Assembly: GCA_030390025.1 (NCBI GenBank)
Contig: CM059438.1
Span: 46,686,001-46,750,000 of the forward strand
DNA: 64,000 nucleotides
Direction: 5' to 3'
Source of the DNA: Squalus acanthias
Taxonomy: Eukaryota
Below, piece after piece: positions 8,854-54,199 of the stretch (position 1 is its first letter; each line of letters begins with the position of its first letter). A program made the translations under genes and the position numbers. The notes beneath the pieces were generated by a model. It had not been told where the DNA came from and searched no databases. It saw only the letters and a program-made list of their open reading frames with translations.

Positions 8854-9499
8854 CTGCGGTTTCAAACACTGAATTAGACCAACATTCCACGTCACACACA
8901 CATCACATCCAACATTTTGGTCATCAAGCTACTCGTGCCCGTATTATAAACGACATGAACGTGCCCTAGTGACCTACACAAGCGTAAATCCTACCGCGGA
9001 TCTGAAGTCAGGTCCAGATTCAGGAACGCTGAATGTAATAAATTATGTAATATCACAGTGCAATATTGATAATGGATCTAAACATGCTGAAAACACCCAA
9101 GAACTTTTGTTAATGTCGTACAACTAGAGGTGATGAACAAACTATATGGATATTTTTTTTAAATAAAAGTTCTTGCGACACCAGTGTTGCACCTTCTCGT
9201 CTGACTTACACGTAATCGTAGGACTGCAGAGAAGACATGGCCTAATAATGCTCTCTGCTTAAAGTTGGCCGGCATGCTTAACTAAGTGAGACTATTGGGA
9301 TTACATTGGAGAAAAAGGGGGATACGAGACAACACAAACAATGACAATGACGACATGGTAGCTAAGGGTAAATCACGCCACAGGCAATCACAAATAATCA
9401 TGCACTAAAGATCAACAAGTCGAAAATTTTACAAACTAGGCTTGATCTCCGCGATGCGAGCCACGCGAGGCCCAGAAACCTGACTGCTTTCCTCCCCAC

Positions 9500-12400
9500 C
9501 AGTCCTTTTACTGTTCCTTGTCTCACTGTAGACCTTTTCAACCTTTGATTTTAAAGGTGCTGCCTCTGGTCTCATATCTCTAGGAGACCTCGATGTAATG
9601 GAAGGTAGGCCGGCTTCCGATAAGGATGCATTTCTCGACGTGCTGTCTTCATCATCAGAGATCTCTGACTGCACTTTTTTCTCTTCATCGGCAAGTCGAT
9701 CCACAAGCTTTAACGCCTCGCCGCTAATCCCTTTAAAATATTCAACTGAATGCTTACAGACTTCACTCAACTGCCCCTTTCCTGCTCTACTTGATTTAAT
9801 CGTGGCAGTGCTGGATCTTACCTTAACTGGTAGTCTGGAATTAAACTGCTTAGATTTTACTTTTTCTACCTGTCCCTGCCCTAAACTGGATTGAGATACT
9901 GCCGCTGGAGGTGAATTAGTTTTGTCAATATTTTTAATGGGAATTCTAGATTTTGTCTCAAAACATTTGGGAGGATCTGCTTTTCCCTTTAACTCACTCT
10001 TCCTAGGCTGTTTCATCTTGCATGCTGCCGTTTTCTGCTCTTTATGAGAAACCGATGATGGCGTCACGGACGTTTTTACCGGAAGTCTCGATTTGGGCTT
10101 TTTTACTGGTTCTGCGACTTGCTTATCTAGTTGTACTATATCGCTTGCTGGGGTTGCCAATGAAACTGGATTTTTCTCACTTGTTTGGACATCCAGTTCA
10201 ATTTTTGGTTTGGCTTTAGACTGACTACTATTCTGACTGCAGTCAGTAGCTGGGACTGGGGAATCAAGTTTGTCATTACAATTACTTATTGGCAAATCGA
10301 CCCTTTCATTTTGTCTGATACATTCCTGGCTCGTAGCTCTAGTCTCAACTGTAGCCATTTCTAAGACTGTATGTTCTGAAACCTGATAATCTAACAGCAC
10401 AGCATCAGCTTTAACTTCGACCACCTCGGTTGCACCCGTATCTTTCTTCATCGTCATTGTAGAAGCGGAAATTCCCATTTTAATTGGCGTGCGTAATTTA
10501 GGATCAACTTTAGCAGCAATGGCCGATGAGGATTTGTCCGCTGCGTTGCCGCTGGATACCGTTTCCAGGCAATCTCCACTAGCCTGGACTTTCTCATGCT
10601 CAACTTGTGGTGTCTCTACTGTCGCCTCAGTTGTATTGTCCCCTGACTGAGGCAGTGTTGCGACTACAAGTGTGTTTTTAACCCTTTCCCCCTTGTCCCC
10701 TGACTTCCCTTCAGCAGTATGCTCACCAATTTGGAAAAATTGGAGCCTTTCTTCAACAAAATCCCTCTTGCTCATGTCAATTGCACCACTGCGAGTCATC
10801 TCAAACATCTTCCCTTCATGAAATGGGAAGGGATTAGGCTCACTAGTTGGAGTGCTCTCATCTGTTGGGGTTCTGGCTGGGGTTGTATCTGGTGTTGTTG
10901 CTTGGGACCTGTCCTCTACTGCTAAGCCAAAGGCTTTTTGCTCATCCTCTCTCAACCTAGCTTCAAAGACTTCATCGTCCCCTCGGCCGTTAGACCATGG
11001 ATCAAAGTCAAGGCCTTTGGTAGCAACAGTTTTAAACGGGGTTGCAAATTCTTCCTCTAGTTTGTAACTAAAATATGTATCATTAAACCCAGTTCTGTCA
11101 GGATGCCTGCCTTCCAAAGTGAAGATCTCGGGTCCTGGTTTACCATCAGTTTGCCCTTCGCCTTTCTTTTCAGAAGTCTGAGCTTTAGACTGTAAGGGTG
11201 CTTCTTCTTCAGCGCCTACCTTTCCTTCTTCCTCAATTACTGCAAGTTTACCCTGGCTATAGGAACGATCCCCCTGCTTCAATATCCCTTCAGTGACCCA
11301 TACATCCATCTTGGTTTCTATTCCCTGATTCAAGGATTTAGAGTCCGTTTCAGTTAAACCATCGTCTTCGTCCTGCAGGTCGTATCCATCAAGAGAGTCA
11401 ACTTCTGTGGCATCGGTGTCGTGGGAGAACTCTGCGGTCGTTGCTATGGAGCACTCGGTGACCGACTGGTCGTTATTGCCATTTGGGACTGCGTCGTCCT
11501 CCGAGTTATCGTCTAAAGCAAATTCGTCGTCAACATTTTGGGGATCGTCGGGATTGTCGAGCTTCCCTGTGGCTTTACATCTCGGTGAGCCAGCAGGGCC
11601 GTCGTCATGGAGCTTAAAGGTGTACTTTTTCAGCGGAGCAGGCTGAAAGATGGATTCGTCGCTGCTCGAATCACTTTCATTGGCCCCGGGCGGGATTGGG
11701 GAGGGCGGCTGGACACGGATGACAGGATCAGCCAGGAAGTGTTTGTCATGCTCTTCCTGCAAATTCAGCTCAATCATGTCTAGCTCGTCCTCAGCAATGG
11801 CACAGCGCTCTTTTTTCCTCATGACAGGCGTCTCTGCGTCCAAGGCGTTGATGGGCGGGGGCGGAGGGAACTCAATGTAGGCCACGCGGTTTTCTTTCGT
11901 TCGTTTGTCATTTCCATCCGATTCGCTCGGCTTCGCGGGTCTCGTCGCAAATCCACTCGCTTCTTTAACGGAGGCCGCTTTGGCCAGCTCTTCCTCTTCT
12001 GACTCTTCGGAAACTTCTGGGATTGGACTGGGTTTTCCGTGCATGGCTGGTAACTGGGAAGAAAGCTCGTAGCTGATTTCCTCAGAACTGGGCGTTTCAG
12101 GTGTAAGAGGACTTTTACCAGAACTTTCGATAAGCGATACTTGTTCCAAGGTGTCATCTTCTGGACTACCCTGAGGAGAGGGGGGCTGTTTGTGCGGTCT
12201 AACTGCATAAAAAGTGCCTCTCGTCTCCTGTACTGTCCTGCTCTCCTGACTGATTATTCTTTTAAAACTTCCTTGGTGTGGGCCTGCAGTTTCTTTTTCA
12301 TACTGTTTGCCCATTTGAACAATGCTGACGTACACAGGCAAAGTCTTTATCTCCTTAAAACCTTCAATGCTCGCTAAGGGTGCTACTTTTTCCAAATACT

Positions 12401-15400
12401 CAATTGGGCTCCGATCAAAGAATTCGCTCAACGATGAATCTTTAACCGGGCTAAACTCCAGAGAGTCAGGCGATTTGACCGGGGAGGTTTCTAGTTCTTC
12501 CCGATAATTGCCCGCATCCATATAATCTCCGTGTCTGTTGGAATGACAGTCCTTGGAGCCATTCGTCTGAATAGTCGTCTCTGCTACTTCAAAGAACTGC
12601 TTTCCCTTTCTGGCCCGACCGAGGGTCATGTTGGACACACTGGTTGGCAGCTCAGACTTGTGGGATTTCACCTGATCACCATTGCATTCTTGCATCTTAG
12701 AAGCCAGTTTTGTTTTTTCTTCCGGAACTCGGAGTGGGATCTGTGATGGACCTGAACTTTCCATTTTCACAGTTCTTACTCCTGTGTGCTCGCCGGCACT
12801 GTCACCATCTTCTCTCATAACTAGCTCCGTGTAAACCATTTTCTTGGACGGAGAGGTCAACAGAGCCTCTTGAATTTCCTTTATAGAAGGCCTATTATTT
12901 GACAGATGCTCCTTCTCCATCACAGAAGGGCCAACCTTTTCTTGCACCTGCCCATTGGCTTGAAACTCAGCATGAGCAGCATCATTGTCCTTCAGATTGT
13001 CATGTATAAGTACATGTGTAAGCTTGTCCCGATGTGATTTGTGATTGGAATTCCCACAGTTTTCCCAAGTTCTGTAGACCTTTCTTTCTTTATCGAATTT
13101 TATTTGGGACTCCGGTTCTTTATTCAACGTTGCCTCTTTTTCAGAAGATCGAACGCTGCCTTTTGCACCAAACATCAACGGCTTTGGAGCAGTGGCCATA
13201 AATTGGGAAACATTTGGCACAACTTCCGCCGTCTTCTGAAGCACCGAGGACGCCAGCTCTGCTCCAACGTTCAAACCTCCGAGTCCACTGACGTCTTTCA
13301 ACTTACTGCTGTGCACTTCCTTCACCGCTGAGACAGCCCCTTCCGCTGCGTGCTCCAGCTTCTTCTGATTGATTTCTTTCAAAGAAAACTGGTAGACCGG
13401 CAGCTTGCTTTCATGTTGCCTTTTAAGAGGAAGGTTTTGCTGCCCTTCTTGCAGGCTCCTCTCGAAAAAGTTCATTTTCACTTCGTCGTCGGCTTGAGCG
13501 CTGGAGTACGGTCCGACAAACTTTCTGAACTTGCCGTCAGCGTGATCGTCCTGCGCAACTCGGTCGTGCAGGTAGGTGTAGCGGGAGGATTCGTTGATTT
13601 TCTGCACCACAACGGGCTCAGATTTCGAATGGGGGGAACCGTTTTTGGTCTGTTTGCAATGGAACGCTGGCTGCGACAGATCTTCACCTGGTTTCATTTT
13701 ATCTTTCGCGTCATCTGAAAAACTGGAATAGGTCCTTCGCGCAGAGGCCGGCCCTGAGTCGGCCGCTCTCTTCTCTTCGGCGCGTACAGAATACCTTCGA
13801 AAGCACGGGTCACCCGGCTTCTCCTGGCCCCATTCATCACTCGGCATTGCCTCAGTCAGCTGTAGCTTCTCGGGGCTGCTGCTGGCGGAACTGAAGCCCG
13901 AATGCGTTTGCATTCCTTCCCTTCTGTACGGCTTCTTCTCCGGCGACTGCAGCTCGTCATTTAGCTTCTCCGTTTTATCTCGAAAAAACTGAGACACTTC
14001 GGTCAGCTTCTCTTCCGCTTCTTTCACCGTTCGGTCAACCCGGTCTTCATAAATGAGCTTTTCCCTTCCGCCTTCTAGCCGGTCCTCACTAAAACGCATC
14101 CACAGGGCATGCTTTGGGCTGCCAGACTCTGGCGGATAGTGTAGGACTGCAACCTTTTCGTAACAATCGTCCTGGTCAGTGGGTTTCCCCATGTTTTCAG
14201 GCATCAGTTTGTGCAGCTTGGCAAGTTCTCTCTCCTGCGCTGAATCATGCTTTCTTTTGTAATGACCAATCACCTGCGAGTCCGCACAGAAGGCCTGAGG
14301 TTGCTCGGTGACCGATTCCTCGGTATCAGAATGAGAGATATCCATTTTTTCGGAAAGAAGCATTTTCTCCGCAAACCTGTAAGACTCTCCTCTCAGCTCC
14401 GAGTATTCGTCGTCGTGGTACTCGACTGAATGCTGAGTGAGAAGCTTCAGCATTTTGTACGAGTCGTCAGAGACGAGCTGTGCGGAGCTGGGCCGGCTGT
14501 CATCGTCCTGGGAGACGGGAGTGTTCACTCTCGACGATTCCATGTAGGATGGAAGAGATTCTTCAGCAGTGAGCTCCTCTTCCTCCTGTTGTGCCTGTTC
14601 ATCCTGACAGACATCAAACTTCTCCGGGAAAACCTTGGCTTCTCTTACTTCACCCTCTCCCAAAAAATCTTTCGGATAAACGAATAGCTCTCTCTCGGGG
14701 TGCTTTTTTGTCTCTCTTATGATGACTTCTGTTGGCTCCACTTTACTTCCTTTTTCAATATGAAACTCAATAATTCTTTCCACCTTTGGCTTCAAGTTGG
14801 AGTCTTTATCAACGTATCTCAACGGGACTTCTCCAGTTTTGCTACTTTCTGAAGAAACTGTTGACTTGTGCTCAAACAGGCCAGCCAATTCTTTGGAAGG
14901 ATCACGCCCCGACTGAAAAGCCTTCATTATATCTCGAACAGACATAGTTTCCTCTATTCTTTCACTTGCATTGCTTTCAGTGCAGGGAGGCGTGTGATAA
15001 ACCATTCTAGTGGTGGTTGTAATGTGAGTTTCTTCTTTCACACGCACTTCTTTGGACTTCAAGCATTTACTGTCTTCGTCCTCGGATTTCATTTTAATTT
15101 GAAAAGCTTTCACCTTGTCCTTGATCGACCCAATAGGTTGCTCCTCCACATTGGAAAACGTGTCTGCCATTTGCGATGGAGCCAATCCCTTAGTCTTGGA
15201 CTCCTGCATTTCATCCAGTGAGGGCTCGTAGCTTCGAATGACCCGAACTACTTCAGTCCGCGTTTCTGTAATAACTGGAGGTATGGGGACATCATGAAAC
15301 AGAGGCTTAGGCCCAGTGCTCTCTGCGCTCTGGGGGGCTGAAGGAGTCTTTTCACTCCTGGTCTCAAACCCACTGTCTGACAGAGGACTCTTATCGTGAT

Positions 15401-17344
15401 CATGCTGCGAGAAATCGTCAGGCGACTCCAAGATGGCTTCTGTTGCCATCATTGCATCTGCAAGTTTGCTCAATTCCTTCTCTGAAGCAGAAGGTCGCAT
15501 GGCAGGTGGGGGCATCTTAAGTTTATGTTCTGGCAAAGGCATTGCTGGCTTATGAGTTCTTTTGGAGAACATTTTTTCTTCACCTTCCTTTTTGGCATCA
15601 GTTTGACGATATCTATTATCACCCATCTTTCCCAGTGTATCAATACCGAGATCGTTTGTCAAATAGTCAACGACTCTTGCCAAACTGAAGTCCTTTTCAC
15701 CTCCATTTTTGGCTTTCATGTGTACAAAAGTGCCAAATTCCTCATTGGCCTTCTGCTTCGCTTCCTCAATATCATCGTAATCGAACATAACCCATTCGCC
15801 TTCACCCGAAAGATCTCCGTTTGTCTGAGCTCCTTTGACACCATGCTTATTCTCCGTCAACCCATCCTTCTGCAGGATCTCGCTGACTTTCACCAAGTCT
15901 TCTTTAACCTTCTCCACAAGCTTAAAAGGCTCTTCACTTTCATCTTCGCTTTTTCCTCCTTTTGCAGACACTTCCGAAGGGAATGTCTTGTCGCTCGCGG
16001 AGTCCGTTTGCAGGATGGCAGTCATCTTCATCAAGTCTTCCTTCATCTCAGCAACGTCTTTCAAAATTTCCTGACTGGAGGACAGAGAGGATGCGGAAGA
16101 TAGTTTCAGTGCTGAAGGAGCAAGAAACAGGGAGGTTTTCAGTGGGGACAATGTTCGGGTAAACTGAGACGGTGGTTGTGTGCGCGATTCCGTAGTCAAG
16201 GATTTTATTGGCGATAACAATGCGGCAGCTGATTTGGTTAATGGAACGGTCTCTGGGAGTCTCTTCAGTTGCGGCTCCGATAACACATTTACAACGGAAT
16301 ACACTGGTACAGTTAAAGTCGACGACGTCACAGATGTCGTCGGCGCGGATGAAGACCTCAACGAGGAATACAAGGACCCCGCAGGGGGCAATCTTATTGT
16401 TTGAAAAGCAGAAGGGGTTGCAGGTGCTAAGGATTTGAGAGAAGTAAACGTGACAGTAGTGGTGGTCGTGTGGGCTTTCTCCACTGCATCGTGCACAGTT
16501 GCGATGGATTTCTTTGCCAGTACAGCGGCTGATGCTTTCTCGGGTGACAATCCGGCTGCTTGACCGCAGAAGAAAGCCGCTGCCGATGGGTACTTGATTG
16601 GCGATATCGTTCCGTTAGCAGCTGTCTGGCCGCTCGATGAGACGGCCGACTTAAATGGCGAAAACGATGCAGACGGCAGTCCCTGGGCTGCGTCAACGAC
16701 AGACTTAACAGGAGAGGACCCCGAGGCCGACAGTGATTTCAAAGGAGAGGACAGAACTGTGGGCGCGGTTGTAATTATGGACTTGAACGGCAAAGTGGAT
16801 GAGTACATGTTAACAGTAGCTTTAGGGGAGGCCGGCGGGGTCATGGTTATGGAGGATCTCTCCAGTAGCGATCCTGCCGTTGTCGCAGGGGACAGCCGTG
16901 AAGAGAACAACGAAGAAGCTAGTCCTTTTACAGAGGAAGATTCAGGCATTACTGATGCTTTCACTGGTGAAGAAATCAAAGCAGAGGAAGATTTAACAGA
17001 ATACTGAGTCTGTGTCACTACAGTTTTTATAGGTGAGGATGTGGACTTAAATGATCTAATTGGAGATGCTAAATCACTCATAGATCTTACTGAGGAGGTT
17101 GTGGAAGCTCCTAAGGTTGATTTGATAGGTGAAGCAGAAGAGACAGACCAAACTGACTTTAATGGAGAGGCTGTAGGTGTGTTGGACGTTGAACTCGACA
17201 ATGAGGTAATTCCAGATTTTGCTTGTCCAGCTACTGAAATGGGGGCAGCTGCCCATGACTGAAAGGGCCTTGTGGAAAAGACCGGCTTGTAAGAGTACGG
17301 TGCGGGGAGAGACCTGGCGGTTCCTGTACTTCGTTCAATGATTT
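9500..17344 (-). CDS. ANK3: Ankyrin-G neuronal giant exon (480-kDa isoform): serine-rich domain plus extended tail, 7845 nt / 2615 codons
   Basis: ORF 9429..17201 extended upstream in frame to acceptor ttttaag (M-K-IIERSTGTARSLP...); donor ACT G|gtgggg; phase 1 to 1. ANK3-specific blocks [85 protein letters not shown]. Confidence 0.97.
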
Positions 17345-18149
17345 CTTAAAAGTTTCAGAAATAAAATCCAAATGAATAAAAAAAAAAAATCAACGAGAAA
17401 AATTAAAGAAACGGAGAGACCAGAGAAAAAAATTTGGTCAGTGAATCAGGTTAAACACAGTTAGACGAAAGTACAAAACGTTTTTAAAAAAGTACAGCGA
17501 TAAATTCAGTGAGAAAACTGATTGAACAACTTTGATTCAGAAAGAATGTTTTCATTTGTTTCTTTTTTTTAAAAAAACCGTACAAACGTTATCAAACTAG
17601 AAAACAACCAAAGCAGCAAAGAAAACAATGCAAAAACACCGTGAGAAGACAAAAATAGGGGAAAGAATTTGGGATGAAAAGACGAACAAAACACAAACAT
17701 GGAACAAATGGTGAGAATTACAAAGGAGGAGATTTTAAGCTGCACTTCCTACCTGCCTTTCACCAGCTAAATCGTGCAGTTAATCTATACACACCACCAG
17801 CTGACGAATTCAGAATATTGAATTATTTGGTTCCAATACCACTACTATTGAAACCCCTTTTTCTTATTAAGCAAATTAATGTTTGAAGCAAAAATAAATT
17901 AAGATAACTAATTAGTCTTATGACCCACAATAATTCTCAGCCGACGTCATTCGATGCGGAGACTGTGGAGCAACAGAAGTGACGTCAACATCTTCGTCTA
18001 CCCCGAGTCAACGCGACACAGCGTTGCTCCATCAGACACTGACGTCGAGACTTCCTTCTACACTAGCACAATTCAAAATGTGTTATCGTTCAAATTAAGG
18101 TCTCAGAAACAGTTTGAAAATGACCAAATATTTCACTGCCAATTCACGG

Positions 18150-24780: not shown

Positions 24781-24958
24781 TAAACGTGTAACATCGCGAT
24801 AAAAAACAAAGGTATAATCCCAATCTAAAACAGAGGTCCAGAAGTTGGTCAGGTGCCTATGTACAAAGTCGTCCAAAACAATCTGCCATCGCGCCAAGAG
24901 ACTGCGCAAATCGCTGGTTCACAGATACAAAAAGGCGGAGTGAAAGTTGAGACTGTAC

Positions 24959-25187
24959 CTCGATGTCTTTGCTTCGTGCCACTTCGGTGAAGTTTTCCTG
25001 CTGCTCTAATGTCTTGTCAACTTTATCGTCAGTCATGCAGAAGCAACGCAGACGGGCTTCCACAGGGTCATGCATTTTGGCAAATACAACAAATTTGGCC
25101 ATGTACGGGACACAGATTAATTCCCTGTAGAGCTGGGTGGCTAAACTAACAGTTTCTGGCACCTGATGGCAGTCGACAAGCCAAAAT
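24959..25187 (-). CDS. ANK3: Ankyrin-G exon, UPA: [12 protein letters not shown]...[29 protein letters not shown]
   Basis: ORF 24857..25207; acceptor gcgcag, donor GAG|gtacag; 229 nt, phase 2 to 0. Confidence 0.96.
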
Positions 25188-26125
25188 CTGCGCATGAAAT
25201 TACACAAACATGAAGTTCATTGAGACCTTTTGAGCTTGGCACGCATTCATTGCAACACACCAGACCATTTAAAATGGGAGACCGCAAATTACTTTGAAAC
25301 TGGGTCACATGAATATTTTAATCAGCCATCGTTTCTCATTTCATTTCTTTCAGCTCTGGCAGCTGATAACTATCAGCTCAGAATCAAAGAAACAGCCTTT
25401 CTGGTAACGGCACGGCCTGGGAGTATCCAATATACTTGGGGCTTTTTCCACAGTACCCCAGGGATTTTTGATTCTATTCATGCATGAAAACTGTCACTTC
25501 AGGCTATAGGTTCCACTGTGTTCATCTTTATATTAAATAAGAGTAAACATACGAATACAGGGGTGTAGCAGAAATTGATAACGTTCTTTTTGTCTGTTTG
25601 GACCTACGACTGTTCTCATCCAAAAATGGTTCACAGTGACGAACTAAAAGAAAGTAATGCAGAACCATGTGGGAGGAGGGACAGAAAAGCAAAAAGAGGC
25701 AACTGACGTCCAGACCACACTTGGCGTCAGTCAGCTGAAAGGAGTCTTCTGGTGCGCAGCATGGGTGCAGTGTGCACTGCCGGACGACTCCTAATACTGT
25801 AGGGGGGGGGGGGGGGGGGGGGGGGTGCAGCCCAGGAGGTCCACGACTGATAGATCCACTGCTTTGGGCCATGTGGTCTATTGCGATAGAGTCAGATGGG
25901 CGCATTCTAGGAGGACATGAGATGGCTAAGGCTCAGCAAGATGGCCCACAAACACCTACAGGGACCGCCGAGGACCCGCGCCTGTGGCACTGCTGATGGT
26001 CGTGACGGGCACCGCTGCAGCCAACCTTTATGCTGCAGGATCCTTGCAGCCACCCAGAGGAGAGGTTAACTGGTTTTCCAGGACTGATTCCCCCTCCCCC
26101 ACCTTACCTCAGCACTGTAAAAATG

Positions 26126-26319
26126 ATGTGGAGATGCCGGTGTTGGACAAATGTGAGAAGTCGCACAACACCAGGTTATAGTCCAACAGTTTTATTTGAA
26201 ATCACAAGCTTTCGGAGCGGCTGCTCCTTCGTCAGGTGACGAAGGAGCAGCGCTCCGAAAGCTTGTGATTTCAAATAAAATTGTTGGACTATAACCTGGT
26301 GTTGTGCGACTTCTCACAT
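26126..26319. mobile_element. Palindromic Penelope-derived element with 11-bp TSD
   Basis: Inverted arms 26151-26234 and 26237-26319; ctgtaaaaatg duplicated at 26115-26125 and 26320-26330. Confidence 0.85.
26203..26238 (-). ncRNA. Minimal hammerhead ribozyme motif within the palindrome
   Basis: Minus strand: cac-CTGACGA-A-GGAGC-agcc-GCTCC-GAAA-GC-TT-gtg. Confidence 0.7.
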
Positions 26320-26985
26320 CTGTAAAAATGGGTTCATGTCATTTCTGGCTGCTTATTTCACCCGTTAATTGAAAACATGGGTTTACAGCTCTTAAAATCT
26401 CTGCAACTAAAAGGGATACAGTCTAACCCTGGTAACTCAGAGACACTAATCATTAGCCAGTAATTTAAATTAAGCAACATAACTAAAATAGCAAAGTGGG
26501 GGGAATTCAGTGATAAAAAGGAAATTGAATTATGAGTTAATTTGAATTAAGCGACTTTAAATTGCGAGTAATAGCATCAGAATATAAATAATACTGTAAC
26601 AGTGCCGATATGACAGGTCACTTACAGAATGGTACCCAATGAACCATGATAGTTCTTTTTAAAATTTGAAATGCTAAAATACCATCCAAACGCGACACGT
26701 GTTTACATATAAATGATAATGGTCGGAATACAAACAGGACTTCCTGCCAAACTGCCCCCTTGTTAGAGTATCACATTTATTTTCTCACAGATCTTTGCAT
26801 TGCAGGTAGGAGAAAACTAATTGGCTTGAAGTGGTTTAGCCATTTTCATCGTTTAACATCCAAGACAGTTAGTCTGAACAAATTGGTAGAAAGTATTTCG
26901 AAGGTAGTTCCATGGTGCCCTACAGCTAACAGAGTTGGGGTGCTTTGTGGGGGCGGGGTTATGAAATGCTTTGGAAAAACTGTAC

Positions 26986-27082
26986 CTGGCTGAAACATTT
27001 GTCGTGAAAGAAACACCATCGTTCACAAAGGTTAATGGTGTCGTTCCAGTTATGTCTTCCCACTGAGCAGGTGATGTGCCTC
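26986..27082 (-). CDS. ANK3: Ankyrin-G exon, ZU5-B: [31 protein letters not shown](R)
   Basis: ORF 26853..27122; acceptor ttgatag, donor AG|gtacag; 97 nt, phase 1 to 2. Confidence 0.96.
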
Positions 27083-27419
27083 CTATCAAGTAAAGAGAGA
27101 AAATGGCAGCTGTCAGAACCATCAGTCAGACACAATGAGGACTTCTGGCTACATCACAGTACAACGATGATAATATCCTGCAATAGACCTAGAACACCAA
27201 TATATATTACACCTGGAATGTCAGACAGCCGTGAATTAAATCTACAGATCCAAACATGGATCCTATGGAAAGTCTAGGCTGTCTATTGCTACCTTCATCA
27301 TGACTGCCTGTACAGTAAGAAGTTACTGAATACATTCCTGTGCATAATAGGAATACTGGTACAATAGTCTAAAGGCTTAATGCGCCAGAATGGATTGTGA
27401 AAATATCAGTATTTAACAA

Positions 27420-27935
27420 GTCAGGAGGGTGATGGAATACACTCCACTCGCCTGGATGGCTGAAGCTGCAACAACACTCAAGAAGCTCAATATCATCCAG
27501 GACCAGGACTTGATCAGCAGTCCATCCACCACCTGAAACATTCACTCCCTCCACCACCGGCGCACCGTGGCTGCAGTGTGCACTATCTACAGGAGCCACT
27601 GCAGCAACTCACCAAGGCTTCTTTGACAACACCTCCCAAACCCGCGACCTCCACCACCAAAAGGACAAAAGCAGCAGGTGCATGGGAACACCATCATCTC
27701 CAAGTTCCCCTCCAAGTCACACAACATCCTAACATGGAAATATATCGCCGATCCTTCATTGTCGCTGGGTCAAAATCCTGGAACTCCCTCCCTAACAGCA
27801 CTATGGGAGCACCTTCACCACACGGACTGCAGCGGTTCAAGGCGGCAGCTCACCACCACCTTCTCGAGGACAACTAGGGATGGGCAATAAATACCGGCCT
27901 TGCAAGCGACGCCCACATCCCGAGAATGAATAAGA
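27420..27935 (+). mobile_element. LINE 3' fragment, second CR1-like family
   Basis: ORFs 27578..27877 and 27678..27890; homologous to 5005-5360. Confidence 0.78.
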
Positions 27936-50360: not shown

Positions 50361-50640
50361 TGAAAATCAATATCAGCTTTATAGCCAAGTGGGAAATGCC
50401 CTTCTATGCCTTGACTACCACAATATAGATCCAGAGTGATTTGTGAAGTTGGAGTGGCCGGGAAACCCAGAAATGCGGTTAAGTAACGCGGAGATCCTGC
50501 CGACTTCAACAGCAGGACCTCATTTAATTGTTTTTTTCCTCTGTTTCCCAGCCGGCAGCCAGCCAGACTGAGAGGCTGTCGAGCAGACTGGCAGGAAGGC
50601 CTGCGATGGTAGGCCGTAGCCGGGGAGCGGAGAAGAGGGA

Positions 50641-53635
50641 GGGCGAGATCGTGGACGGAAGGTCGGGGGGGAGATCGTGGACGGAAGGTCGGGGGGGAGA
50701 GATCGTGGACGGAAGGTCGGGGGGGGAAGAGATCGTGGACGGAAGGTCGGGGGGGAGAGATCGTGGACGGAAGGTCGGGGGGGAGAGATCGTGGACGGAA
50801 GGTCGGGGGGGAGAGATCGTGGACGGAAGGGAGAGATCGTGGACGGAAGGTCGGGGGCGAGATCGTGGACGGAAGGTCGGGGGGGAAGAGATCGTGGACG
50901 GAAGGTCGGGGGGAAGAGATCGTGGACGGAAGGTCGAGGGGGAAGAGATCGTGGACGGAAGGTCGGGGGGGGGGAAGAGATCGTGGACGGAAGGTCGGGG
51001 GGGAGAGATCGTGGACGGAAGGGAGAGGATCGTGGACGGAAGGTCGGGGGGGAGAGATCGTGGACGGAAGGGAGAGGATCGTGGACGGAAGGTCGGGGGC
51101 GAGATCGTGGACGGAAGGTCGGGGGCGAGATCGTGGACGGGAAGGTCGGGGGCGAGATCGTGGACGGAAGGTCGGGGGCGAGATCGTGGACGGAAGGTCG
51201 GGGGCGAGATCGTGGACGGAAGGTCGGGGGCGAGATCGTGGACGGAAGGTCGGGGGCGAGATCGTGGACGGAAGGTCGGGGGCGAGATCGTGGACGGAAG
51301 GTCGGGGGCGAGATCGTGGACGGAAGGTCGGGGGCGAGATCGTGGACGGAAGGTCGGGGGCGAGATCGTGGACGGAAGGTCGGGGGCGAGATCGTGGACG
51401 GAAGGTCGGGGGCGAGATCGTGGACGGAAGGTCGGGGGCGAGATCGTGGACGGAAGGTCGGGGGCGAGATCGTGGACGGAAGGTCGGGGGCGAGATCGTG
51501 GACGGAAGGTCGGGGGCGAGATCGTGGACGGAAGGTCGGGGGCGAGATCGTGGACGGAAGGTCGGGGGCGAGATCGTGGACGGAAGGTCGGGGGCGAGAT
51601 CGTGGACGGAGGTCGGGGGCGAGATCGTGGACGGAGGTCGGGGGCGAGATCGTGGACGGAGGTCGGGGGCGAGATCGTGGACGGAGGTCGGGGGCGAGAT
51701 CGTGGACGGAGGTCGGGGGCGAGATCGTGGACGGGAAGGTCGGGGGCGAGATCGTGGACGGAGGTCGGGGGCGAGATCGTGGACGGAGGTCGGGGGCGAG
51801 ATCGTGGACGGAAGGTCGGGGGCGAGATCGTGGACGGAAGGTCGGGGGCGAGATCGTGGACGGAAGGTCGGGGGCGAGATCGTGGACGGAAGGTCGGGGG
51901 CGAGATCGTGGACGGAAGGTCGGGGGCGAGATCGTGGACGGAAGGTCGGGGGCGAGATCGTGGACGGAAGGTCGGGGGCGAGATCGTGGACGGAAGGTCG
52001 GGGGCGAGATCGTGGACGGAAGGTCGGGGGCGAGATCGTGGACGGAAGGTCGGGGGCGAGATCGTGGACGGAAGGTCGGGGGCGAGATCGTGGACGGGAG
52101 GTCGGGGGGCGAGATCGTGGACGGGAGGTCGGGGGCGAGATCGTGGACGGGAGGTCGGGGGCGAGATCGTGGACGGGAGGTCGGGGGCGAGATCGTGGAC
52201 GGGAGGTCGGGGGCGAGATCGTGGACGGGAGGTCGGGGGCGAGATCGTGGACGGGAGGTCGGGGGCGAGATCGTGGACGGGAGGTCGGGGGCGAGATCGT
52301 GGACGGGAGGTCGGGGGCGAGATCGTGGACGGGAGGTCGGGGGCGAGATCGTGGACGGGAGGTCGGGGGCGAGATCGTGGACGGGAGGTCGGGGGCGAGA
52401 TCGTGGACGGGAGGTCGGGGGCGAGATCGTGGACGGGAGGTCGGGGGCGAGATCGTGGACGGGAGGTCGGGGGCGAGATCGTGGACGGGAGGTCGGGGGC
52501 GAGATCGTGGACGGGAGGTCGGGGGCGAGATCGTGGACGGGAGGTCGGGGGCGAGATCGTGGACGGGAGGTCGGGGGCGAGATCGTGGACGGGAGGTCGG
52601 GGGCGAGATCGTGGACGGGAGGTCGGGGGCGAGATCGTGGACGGGAGGTCGGGGGCGAGATCGTGGACGGGAGGTCGGGGGGCGAGATCGTGGACGGGAG
52701 GTCGGGGGCGAGATCGTGGACGGGAGGTCGGGGGCGAGATCGTGGACGGGAGGTCGGGGGCGAGATCGTGGACGGGAGGTCGGGGGCGAGATCGTGGACG
52801 GGAGGTCGGGGGCGAGATCGTGGACGGGAGGTCGGGGGCGAGATCGTGGACGGGAGGTCGGGGGCGAGATCGTGGACGGGAGGTCGGGGGCGAGATCGTG
52901 GACGGGAGGTCGGGGGCGAGATCGTGGACGGGAGGTCGGGGGCGAGATCGTGGACGGGAGGTCGGGGGCGAGATCGTGGACGGGAGGTCGGGGGCGAGAT
53001 CGTGGACGGGAGGTCGGGGGCGAGATCGTGGACGGGAGGTCGGGGGCGAGATCGTGGACGGGAGGTCGGGGGCGAGATCGTGGACGGGAGGTCGGGGGCG
53101 AGATCGTGGACGGGAGGTCGGGGGCGAGATCGTGACGGGAGGTCGGGGGCGAGATCGGGACGGGAGGTCGGGGGCGAGATCGTGGACGGGAGGTCGGGGG
53201 GCGAGATCGTGGTGGGAAGGTCGGGGGGGAGAAATCGTGGACGGAAGGTCGGGGGGAGAGATCGTGGACGGAAGGTCGGGGGAGAGATCGTGGTTGGAAG
53301 GTCGGGGGCAAGATCGTGGTTGGAAGGTCGGGGGCGAGATCGTGGTTGGAAGGTCGGGGGCGAGATCGTGGTTGGAAGGTCGGGGGGGAGAAATCGTGGA
53401 CGGAAGGTCGGGGGGAGAGATCGTGGTTGGAAGGTCGGGGGGGAGAAATCGTGGACGGAAGGTCGGGGGGAGAGATCGTGGTTGGAAGGTCGGGGGAGAG
53501 ATCGTGGTTGGAAGGTCGGGGGCAGAGATCGTGGTTGGAAGGTCGGGGGCGAGATCGTGGTTGGAAGGTCGGGGGAGATCAGATTGTGGATGGAAGGTCG
53601 GGGGAGAGATCGTGGATGGAAGGTCGTGGATGGAA
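50641..53635. repeat. G-rich 26-bp minisatellite, about 3 kb (GGGGGCGAGATCGTGGACGG[A/G]AGGTC)
   Basis: Directly visible; roughly 115 units; the unit has no stop codon in any frame, which explains the six long ORFs. Confidence 0.98.
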
Positions 53636-54199
53636 GATCCTGCTGGATCCATCCCTTCCCGCCTCCCTTCAGTTGCCCTGGGAAACCCGTGTTGGGAGAC
53701 ATAAAATTTAATGCAAAAGGACCTCATTAACATCTCATAAGGATGTTACTTGCTGCAGTAAGTACCCACCCGCGTGCATTAATTAAGGTCTCGACTGCGG
53801 CGAGTAGGTTACTCACAGGTATACAAATGAGCCTCCGTTAAACCCGGAAGTGGGCGCATTGGAGCCGGGTTGCAGTCATGTTCTAAAAAAAACATTTTAA
53901 CTACCTACTCGCCCCCAACCTACCCGTTCTTGGCGGTTAAAATTCCCCCCCCCATATGTCTCAGTGTTATGGAAAACAGACAGAAATAAAAGTCCCCAGG
54001 CAAGAATAGATAAAAGGATTAGAGGCTTTACCCCAACAGGAGTCCACAAAGGACAGGAAATTCAAACTGTAATGCCCAATATTTTGAATATATCTCATTG
54101 ATTTGCATTCCGCAGCAATCCAACTTTAGAGATGTCTGAAACAGCGATGATGCACTCCATGTTGAAGCTGAATACTGGTTATTAATCTGTTAGTCCATA

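Follow-up and report, generated by a model that had tools for sequence, protein, structure and literature searches.

Insertions of EN+ Penelope elements (PLEs) have been described for Pen2a_Av and its relatives (PMC3846280) and summarized in a scheme (PMC8557442). According to the available parts of these papers, they have a head-to-head inverted terminal copy, a palindromic junction, a tail of 30-40 nt at one end and a target site duplication (TSD). The same architecture, which is thus already published, was found in the present study as an inverted pLTR with a palindromic junction, a one-sided tail and a TSD. In contrast to insertions of the Pen2a_Av type, the copies analyzed here consist of two arms only, have no ORF and number in the thousands. 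The formation of tandem and inverted PLE structures is called undefined in the available text of PMC8557442. In that of PMC3846280 the junctions are ascribed to self-priming on an antisense template, whereas the present data favour two primings on sense RNA. Our literature search, which is weak in that subscription journals lay mostly outside it, found no published twin-priming or symmetric-target account of PLE inversions.

Another close system is Poseidon PAc of Anolis carolinensis (PMC11167929). In the available text of that paper, PAc is predicted to be dimeric, and in vitro both strands are cleaved and extended with an uncleaved hammerhead RNA as the template. As in the present family, two adjacent internal starts on the RNA bound the tail and the targets are AT-rich; the spacing between the ends of the tail-bearing and tail-less arms here is that of the two RT start sites of PAc. 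The parent of the present family differs in being apparently of the Neptune/Nematis type (CX4CxxC) and in having its ATG in the tail and not in the hammerhead. In the same text homology is reported to be absent from the start site, the steps that follow initiation are left unvalidated, and inverted products, a 12-bp stagger or a symmetric flank motif are not treated.

Metazoan PLEs carry minimal type I hammerheads (PMC4209133), which are predicted, in the available text, to need a dimer. The motif found here resembles them in that helix I is short, a base is bulged out ahead of stem II, a G-C closing pair is present, helix III is a palindromic stub, variability is high and opposite-strand pairs occur; it differs in that one of the two copies lacks C3, and its self-cleavage is a prediction. 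Non-LTR retrozymes (bioRxiv 10.64898/2026.07.22.740005; PMC7229834), as far as the accessible text describes them, are likewise non-coding, hammerhead-bearing and derived from PLE pLTRs, but they are head-to-tail tandems able to release a monomer, whereas the present copies are head-to-head with at most one intact core per strand. At the locus itself a single intact core was found, in place of head-to-tail units with a complete hammerhead each.

In LINE-1 twin priming, the second target strand primes a second cDNA, and a microhomology join of the two gives an inversion with a TSD. L1 inversions contain two different, adjacent parts of the RNA, whereas both arms of the present copies represent the same stretch, with two fixed starts.

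We analyzed a palindrome in an ankyrin intron together with its family. In the reading that we prefer and consider probable, a dimeric RT-endonuclease primes both target strands on an RNA that is capped and uncleaved, and microhomology serves to join the two resulting cDNAs. It is the family copies, and not the locus itself, that bear on the mechanism of Penelope insertion.

Structure of the palindrome

The window (the whole 64,000-nt stretch of DNA that was analyzed) contains a palindromic insertion of 216 bases, TSDs included, at positions 26115-26330. Alignment gave inverted arms of 84 and 83 nt around a GG spacer, with a single mismatch and a single 1-nt indel between them, in agreement with the arms of ~84 bp and 2-nt spacer of an earlier note on this DNA. 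The 11-bp TSD of that note was also recovered, as CTGTAAAAATG on the plus strand at 26115-26125 and 26320-26330. Its account of the parts was sound for arms, spacer and TSD but had overlooked an unpaired Penelope tail of 25 nt at 26126-26150 (minus strand), which lies between the left TSD and the left arm. The end of this tail directly precedes the ATG of the autonomous ORF. The tail is 9 nt shorter than in most copies, and an identical deletion is present in two of them (L002 and L007). The last 3 nt of the left TSD also match the element, which may represent priming microhomology.

The tail-bearing arm (26151-26234, minus strand, 84 nt) is in the sense of the 5' end of the element RNA and comprises the hammerhead core and the downstream leader. 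The junction, a 2-nt GG spacer at 26235-26236 between TCA and TGA (3-nt microhomology), is located some 5 nt inward of the RNA's inferred 5' end. The tail-less arm (26237-26319, 83 nt) is in the sense orientation on the plus strand and ends at the inner of two start sites (the cluster around -37). The arms differ at 2 of 84 nt, a divergence typical of the class. The fold of the minus strand has an energy of -155.9 kcal/mol (z = -26), and none of 200 shuffles was equally good.

Hammerhead motif

The minus strand from 26239 down to 26202 contains a predicted minimal type I hammerhead, assigned from sequence, covariation and fold, with the motif given in the earlier note: stem I UCAC/GUGA, CUGACGA, a bulged A, stem II GGAGC/GCUCC with a 4-nt loop, GAAA and a palindromic AGCU. 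Cleavage is predicted between 26206 and 26205. As the note had also stated, the plus-strand motif is without the first C. A G stands at C3, and the core in the tail-less arm lacks the 5' strand of stem I as well.

Across the family, the core CUGANGA/GAAA/UH and the pairing of stems I and II point to a minimal type I hammerhead. Among the 27 haplotypes seen at least twice, 97.1% of the cells of stems I and II were paired, compared with 24-53% in slid controls. Double-sided changes were found in 2 of 9 pairs (7 cells), with a C-G to U-A change in each of stems I and II; 108 of 500 shuffles also reached two pairs, and related sequences can exceed such a control without any structure. N7 and H17 vary, as allowed, and the loop of stem II has 3-8 nt. 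In single-strand folds of the isolated hammerhead or leader, the native fold did not reach a significant z, so that the support for the structure is the covariation. A search of the window against Rfam had no hit at the gathering score; minimal hammerheads are not necessarily included in that database.

Either strand of the insertion folds into a long hairpin (computed for the minus strand), in which the hammerhead is predicted to be locked. The burial of the ribozyme in ANK3 pre-mRNA that had been predicted earlier would thus be expected from the model. The centre of the palindrome is situated some 30 nt upstream of the point where cleavage is predicted, which argues that the template was not a cleavage product; the copies suggest that the template's 5' end is not set by the hammerhead.

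In some subfamilies (L172, L233 and L243) CUGANGA is replaced by CCGACGA and the covarying stems are kept. Loop II shows a 1-nt insertion (sense strand: A or C; 26219-26220 in the window) that is discordant between the arms far more often than other indels; two templates or a hot spot of RT errors could lie behind this.

Autonomous parent element

The 3.7-Gb genome was searched for exact matches, a type of pattern that favours young copies, and contained 32,980 matches of a 31-nt tail motif, 32,777 of a 29-nt arm motif and 432 of the exact 26-nt centre of the window copy. The sequence 3' of the tail leads into an ORF. Among 12 loci that were extended, L152 has the sole intact frame, with 891 aa and a copy of the leader on each side. 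The profile search with this ORF gave RVT_1 above the cut-off and GIY-YIG just under it (E 5e-4, 20.8 bits), and the Atlas neighbours of the protein carry RT, HTH_animal and GIY-YIG. No match was obtained in a PDB sequence search with the 891-aa ORF or in a phage tblastn with the endonuclease. The available text of PMC8557442 characterizes Neptune/Nematis elements by a CX2-5CxxC linker before GIY-YIG and two core cysteines. The L152 protein (P0001) has CHGNLCKTC, a CX4CxxC linker, and the core cysteines in RCRKGC. The parent is an autonomous EN+ Penelope element and, judged by these motifs, apparently of the Neptune/Nematis type.

The Penelope origin that the earlier note had proposed is borne out, as the same leader precedes the intact 891-aa ORF with RT and GIY-YIG. 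Because the leader is shared with L152, the arms of the window copy correspond to the first ~85 and ~110 nt of its leader. The hammerhead leader stands on both sides of the ORF in L152, L154, L155 and L156, as in pLTRs of partial-tandem structure, and the inverted 5' copy, the tail at one end and the TSD are those of an EN+ PLE insertion.

Two other members of the family (L161 and L162; G000:C1:21326577 and 73702988) are retrozyme-like and consist of head-to-tail units of ~200 nt with the leader and the first 80-90 nt of the ORF. In L162 a TCA-CC-TGA junction is present at the 5' end too.

Junctions and ends of family copies

Family copies were sampled on contigs C1-C3 only, with exact-match patterns that favour young copies. 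The centre-selected sample comprised the first 90 listed copies with the centre of the window copy, and tails were ignored in the choice. One tail was found in 87 of the 90 and two tails in none; of the other three, one was truncated and two (L119 and L120) represent a duplicated locus, in which the element centre lies within a larger palindrome that includes non-element flanks. A TSD of at least 8 nt was present in all 87 copies, with a mode of 12 bp, and in 7 of 261 controls. The tail-bearing arms end between -5 and +10 from the ATG with a mode of +1 (64 of 83 placed), and the tail-less arms between -51 and -31 with a mode of -37 (71 of 83 placed). The two clusters are about 38 nt apart on the RNA.

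The tail-selected sample consisted of 70 copies from the start of contig C1, and centres were sampled there. An inverted arm within 690 nt was found in 39 of them; 26, which include some longer or diverged arms, were without one by the anchor test, and 5 were without an anchor, the sample containing one duplicate pair. In none of the 39 centre-blind palindromes did the second arm carry a tail. Their unpaired centre was native to the tail-less arm in 18, to the tail arm in 15 and to neither in 5, and was absent in 1. In the long insertions L154 and L156, BLAST coordinates place the tail on the inverted arm, and the direct end is without it. One apparent exception (L044) has tail sequence on both arms.

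The earlier note had interpreted the palindrome as a non-autonomous ribozyme-hairpin element, which would be a dedicated palindromic unit copied from one or a few masters. Such an element would account for the 432 copies with an identical 26-nt centre and for the common layout of all 40 copies scored, the best of 1959 candidates in a DNA search, a sample biased to its query. Tandem non-coding units also exist in the family (L161 and L162). The same-length palindromic copies with TSDs from which the note would have recognized its element do exist (432 copies; TSD in 87 of 87), but they form a query-biased class that makes up 1-2% of the family (432 against 32,980). The identical centre is found both ways round with respect to the tail (on the tail strand, the spacer is GG in 53 and CC in 34 copies) and on four haplotype backgrounds. 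A recurrent junction in L206-L211 likewise occurs in either polarity and with different haplotypes. Both ends of the copies are ragged, and the short copies lack the ORF stretch 3' of the start sites that, in the available text of PMC11167929, the anole protein needs. The fixed structure and orientation of a dedicated element were thus not found; instead there are many centres, both polarities and subfamily-specific arms. On the other side, L234 and L237 have a rare junction and a private variant in common at different target sites about 0.5 Mb apart, which suggests that some junctions may be inherited from a palindromic source locus, or that conversion may have taken place. We regard a dedicated element as distinctly improbable. 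From the many centres, both polarities and subfamily-specific arms, it is likely that the copies are made anew at each insertion. A stricter form with a single palindromic master was rejected on finding both centre polarities. L237 and L238 are a segmental pair.

A different explanation needs only one priming event. The tail-primed cDNA would fold back at its 3' end and copy itself, and immediate or later tip deletions would vary the centres; a similar reading, on an antisense template, is found in the available text of PMC3846280. At a subfamily site, 78 of 81 copies have concordant arms, where 39 disagreements would be expected at random. Both arms therefore usually come from one source, and most events are indistinguishable from single-cDNA copying by sequence alone. 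Rarer variants are also common to both arms in L064, L070, L075 and L112, perfect centres lie on natural palindromes in L172 and L188, and TCA-GG-TGA could form a mini-hairpin, all of which would fit self-priming. The fixed stop of the second arm in the cluster at -37, however, is left unexplained by it, as is the extra native sequence in the tail-less arm in 18 of 39 palindromes. The loop II insertion, which is the window copy's own indel, is discordant between the arms in 10 of 17 carriers, and the arms of L239 match two haplotypes at four sites and those of L144 at two. Pure self-copying does not give such chimeras. The loop II discordance could be explained by a mutation hot spot, and the few chimeras by gene conversion. 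Taken with both sides of this evidence, self-priming seems rather unlikely. One form of it, a fold-back of the tail-primed cDNA with CC always on the sense strand, was rejected, as both polarities were found.

Individual junctions show further features. Those of L190, L167 and L037 contain a short duplication that is templated, a hexamer present three times or letters without a template; end joining or jumps of the RT would be expected to leave such traces.

Target sites and the template's 5' end

On either strand, the flanks of 12-bp TSDs had G(+1), C(+3) and G(+7), first in a discovery set of 34 copies and again in 44 independent ones, the +1 position being inflated by the choice of the longest TSD. 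G at +7 was found on the two strands in 21 and 17 of the 34 discovery copies and in 22 and 29 of the 44 independent copies, against a background of 0.24 (p = 0.02 to 5e-10 for +3 and +7). A target with this two-fold symmetry fits a homodimer. Of 64 tail ends, 47 had microhomology of at least 1 nt, as had 58 of 71 tail-less ends, compared with ~18 and ~29 in controls; these counts, too, are inflated by the longest-TSD choice. Independent insertions were found at the same position of other repeats (L165, L166 and L178; L083 and L087), consistent with a sequence preference of the endonuclease.

The 5' ends of the arms accumulate at ACTTCACC, where the preceding base is G 2817 times and A or T 1448 times. 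By eye, A stands in 28 of the first 100 A/T rows, and T is native in some subfamilies. One base further up there are only 648 non-native letters, with 44 G and 33 A per 100 by eye. In 29 of 30 arms that continue into native sequence, TATATA is located 30-34 nt upstream. An untemplated G in L1 and SVA is ascribed, in the available text of PMC3287187, to copying of the cap. Of the 39 G rows listed, 13, as counted by eye, represent one recurrent junction, and their G may belong to the other arm. The accumulation of ends itself is therefore firm, while the origin of the extra G from a copied cap, i.e. from a capped start of the RNA, is suggestive.

Proposed mechanism of insertion

From these observations we infer the following course for double priming. 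A dimer would make a two-fold symmetric, staggered cut in strands about 12 bp apart. Priming would take place on one strand at an outer site, about +1 relative to the ATG, and on the other at an inner site, about -37; the tail would correspond to the stretch between the two. Both cDNAs would reach the 5' end of the RNA, with no jump to its 3' end. This 5' end probably represents a Pol II start with a cap; it would lie 30 nt below the TATA box, with the uncut hammerhead downstream of it. The 3' ends of the cDNAs would then be joined by 1-4 nt of microhomology, here TCA/TGA, with trimming. The template would usually be one RNA, or RNAs of one source locus, and occasionally two different RNAs. 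Since neither the promoter nor the region of the ORF 3' of the start sites is included, the product is probably dead on arrival.

A broader proposal, to which we give about even chances, is that Penelope integration is intrinsically double-primed. A homodimer would act on a mirror-symmetric G+1/C+3/G+7 site outside the 12-nt stagger, with two fixed starts on a capped, hammerhead-uncleaved RNA (sometimes two RNAs). [quoted passage not shown] It is worth noting that mixed polarity and lopsided centres could also result if a longer fold-back palindrome suffered deletions at its tip. In addition, the start sites of the anole protein are equal on both strands in the available text of PMC11167929, and the one-tail rule is not predicted by them.

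For the in vitro system, double priming predicts that the cuts are staggered by 12 nt, that the flanks carry a symmetric motif, that each strand has one start and that the cDNA stops at the capped 5' end. For annotation, palindromes of the Penelope type should not be classed as MITEs or ribozyme elements.

Host gene and history of the locus

The host gene is an ankyrin gene on the minus strand, as matches to the ZU5 and UPA domains indicated. Its best PDB match was Ankyrin-3, with a nearly equal score for Ankyrin-2. A giant ankyrin exon with an open frame of 2638 aa and a Ser/Thr-rich start is present at 9429-17345 of the window (minus strand), and we take such an exon to fit ANK3. Of the ANK3 host named in the earlier note, the ankyrin on the minus strand stands, and the choice of ANK3 over ANK2 is presumptive, through the giant exon. 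The palindrome is intronic, ~0.6-0.9 kb from the flanking ankyrin exons. With approximate borders, the frame with the upstream exon (ZU5/UPA region; translation inspected) lies at 26856-27125 and that with the downstream exon (UPA domain; domain and PDB matches) at 24860-25216, both on the minus strand.

The empty site that the earlier note had suggested looking for was found. Single contigs of organisms B and C bridge the flanks with 16 letters, compared with 226 in the window, and their flanks diverge ~5-8% from those of the window. The insertion therefore appears lineage-specific, on one contig from each organism, and its youth, also proposed in the note, holds in this relative sense. Both junctions are crossed by contigs of run X1, which carries the same organism label and may derive from the sample used for the assembly. 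The run contigs showed no polymorphic empty allele within the organism, X5 being without cover of the right flank. These data also bear on an assembly fold-back artefact, the outcome by which the earlier note would have been refuted. The palindrome is near-perfect, and none of the listed contigs covers the whole stretch, as might be expected of such an artefact; but the TSD, the tail, the empty site in two organisms, the junctions in the contigs of run X1 and the many homologous loci, each with its own TSD, leave it a negligible probability.

The hairpin might also have been recruited as a regulator of ANK3, through editing, small RNA or splicing, or might act as a cruciform; the earlier note had suggested ADAR, Dicer and cruciform roles, for which nothing in the present data marks out this copy among the others. 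It is very stable, lies in an intron close to the exons, and both of its junctions are touched by low-depth contigs of runs guessed to be RNA. In contigs of four such runs, neither an ANK3 splice joint nor a usable editing signal was found, a result that has no bearing on expression or editing, as the signal is swamped by other copies; among the holders listed in a sequencing-run search for the insertion there was no RNA run. The hairpin is absent from organisms B and C, thousands of similar hairpins exist, and the divergence of its arms (2 of 84 nt) is that of the class. A regulatory role is accordingly very unlikely. The insertion is probably an inert by-product and a neutral passenger in the intron, and the locus is an ordinary example of an insertion type already known.

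Several other repeats are present in the window. A high-copy repeat lies at 27500-27930, just upstream of the element in the gene, and a run of 24 G at 25803-25826, 290 nt from the element. At 50620-53730 there is a G-rich tandem repeat of ~3 kb with a GC content of 0.62-0.66 and a GC skew of 0.5, which matches itself at multiples of ~26 nt and is open in several frames.
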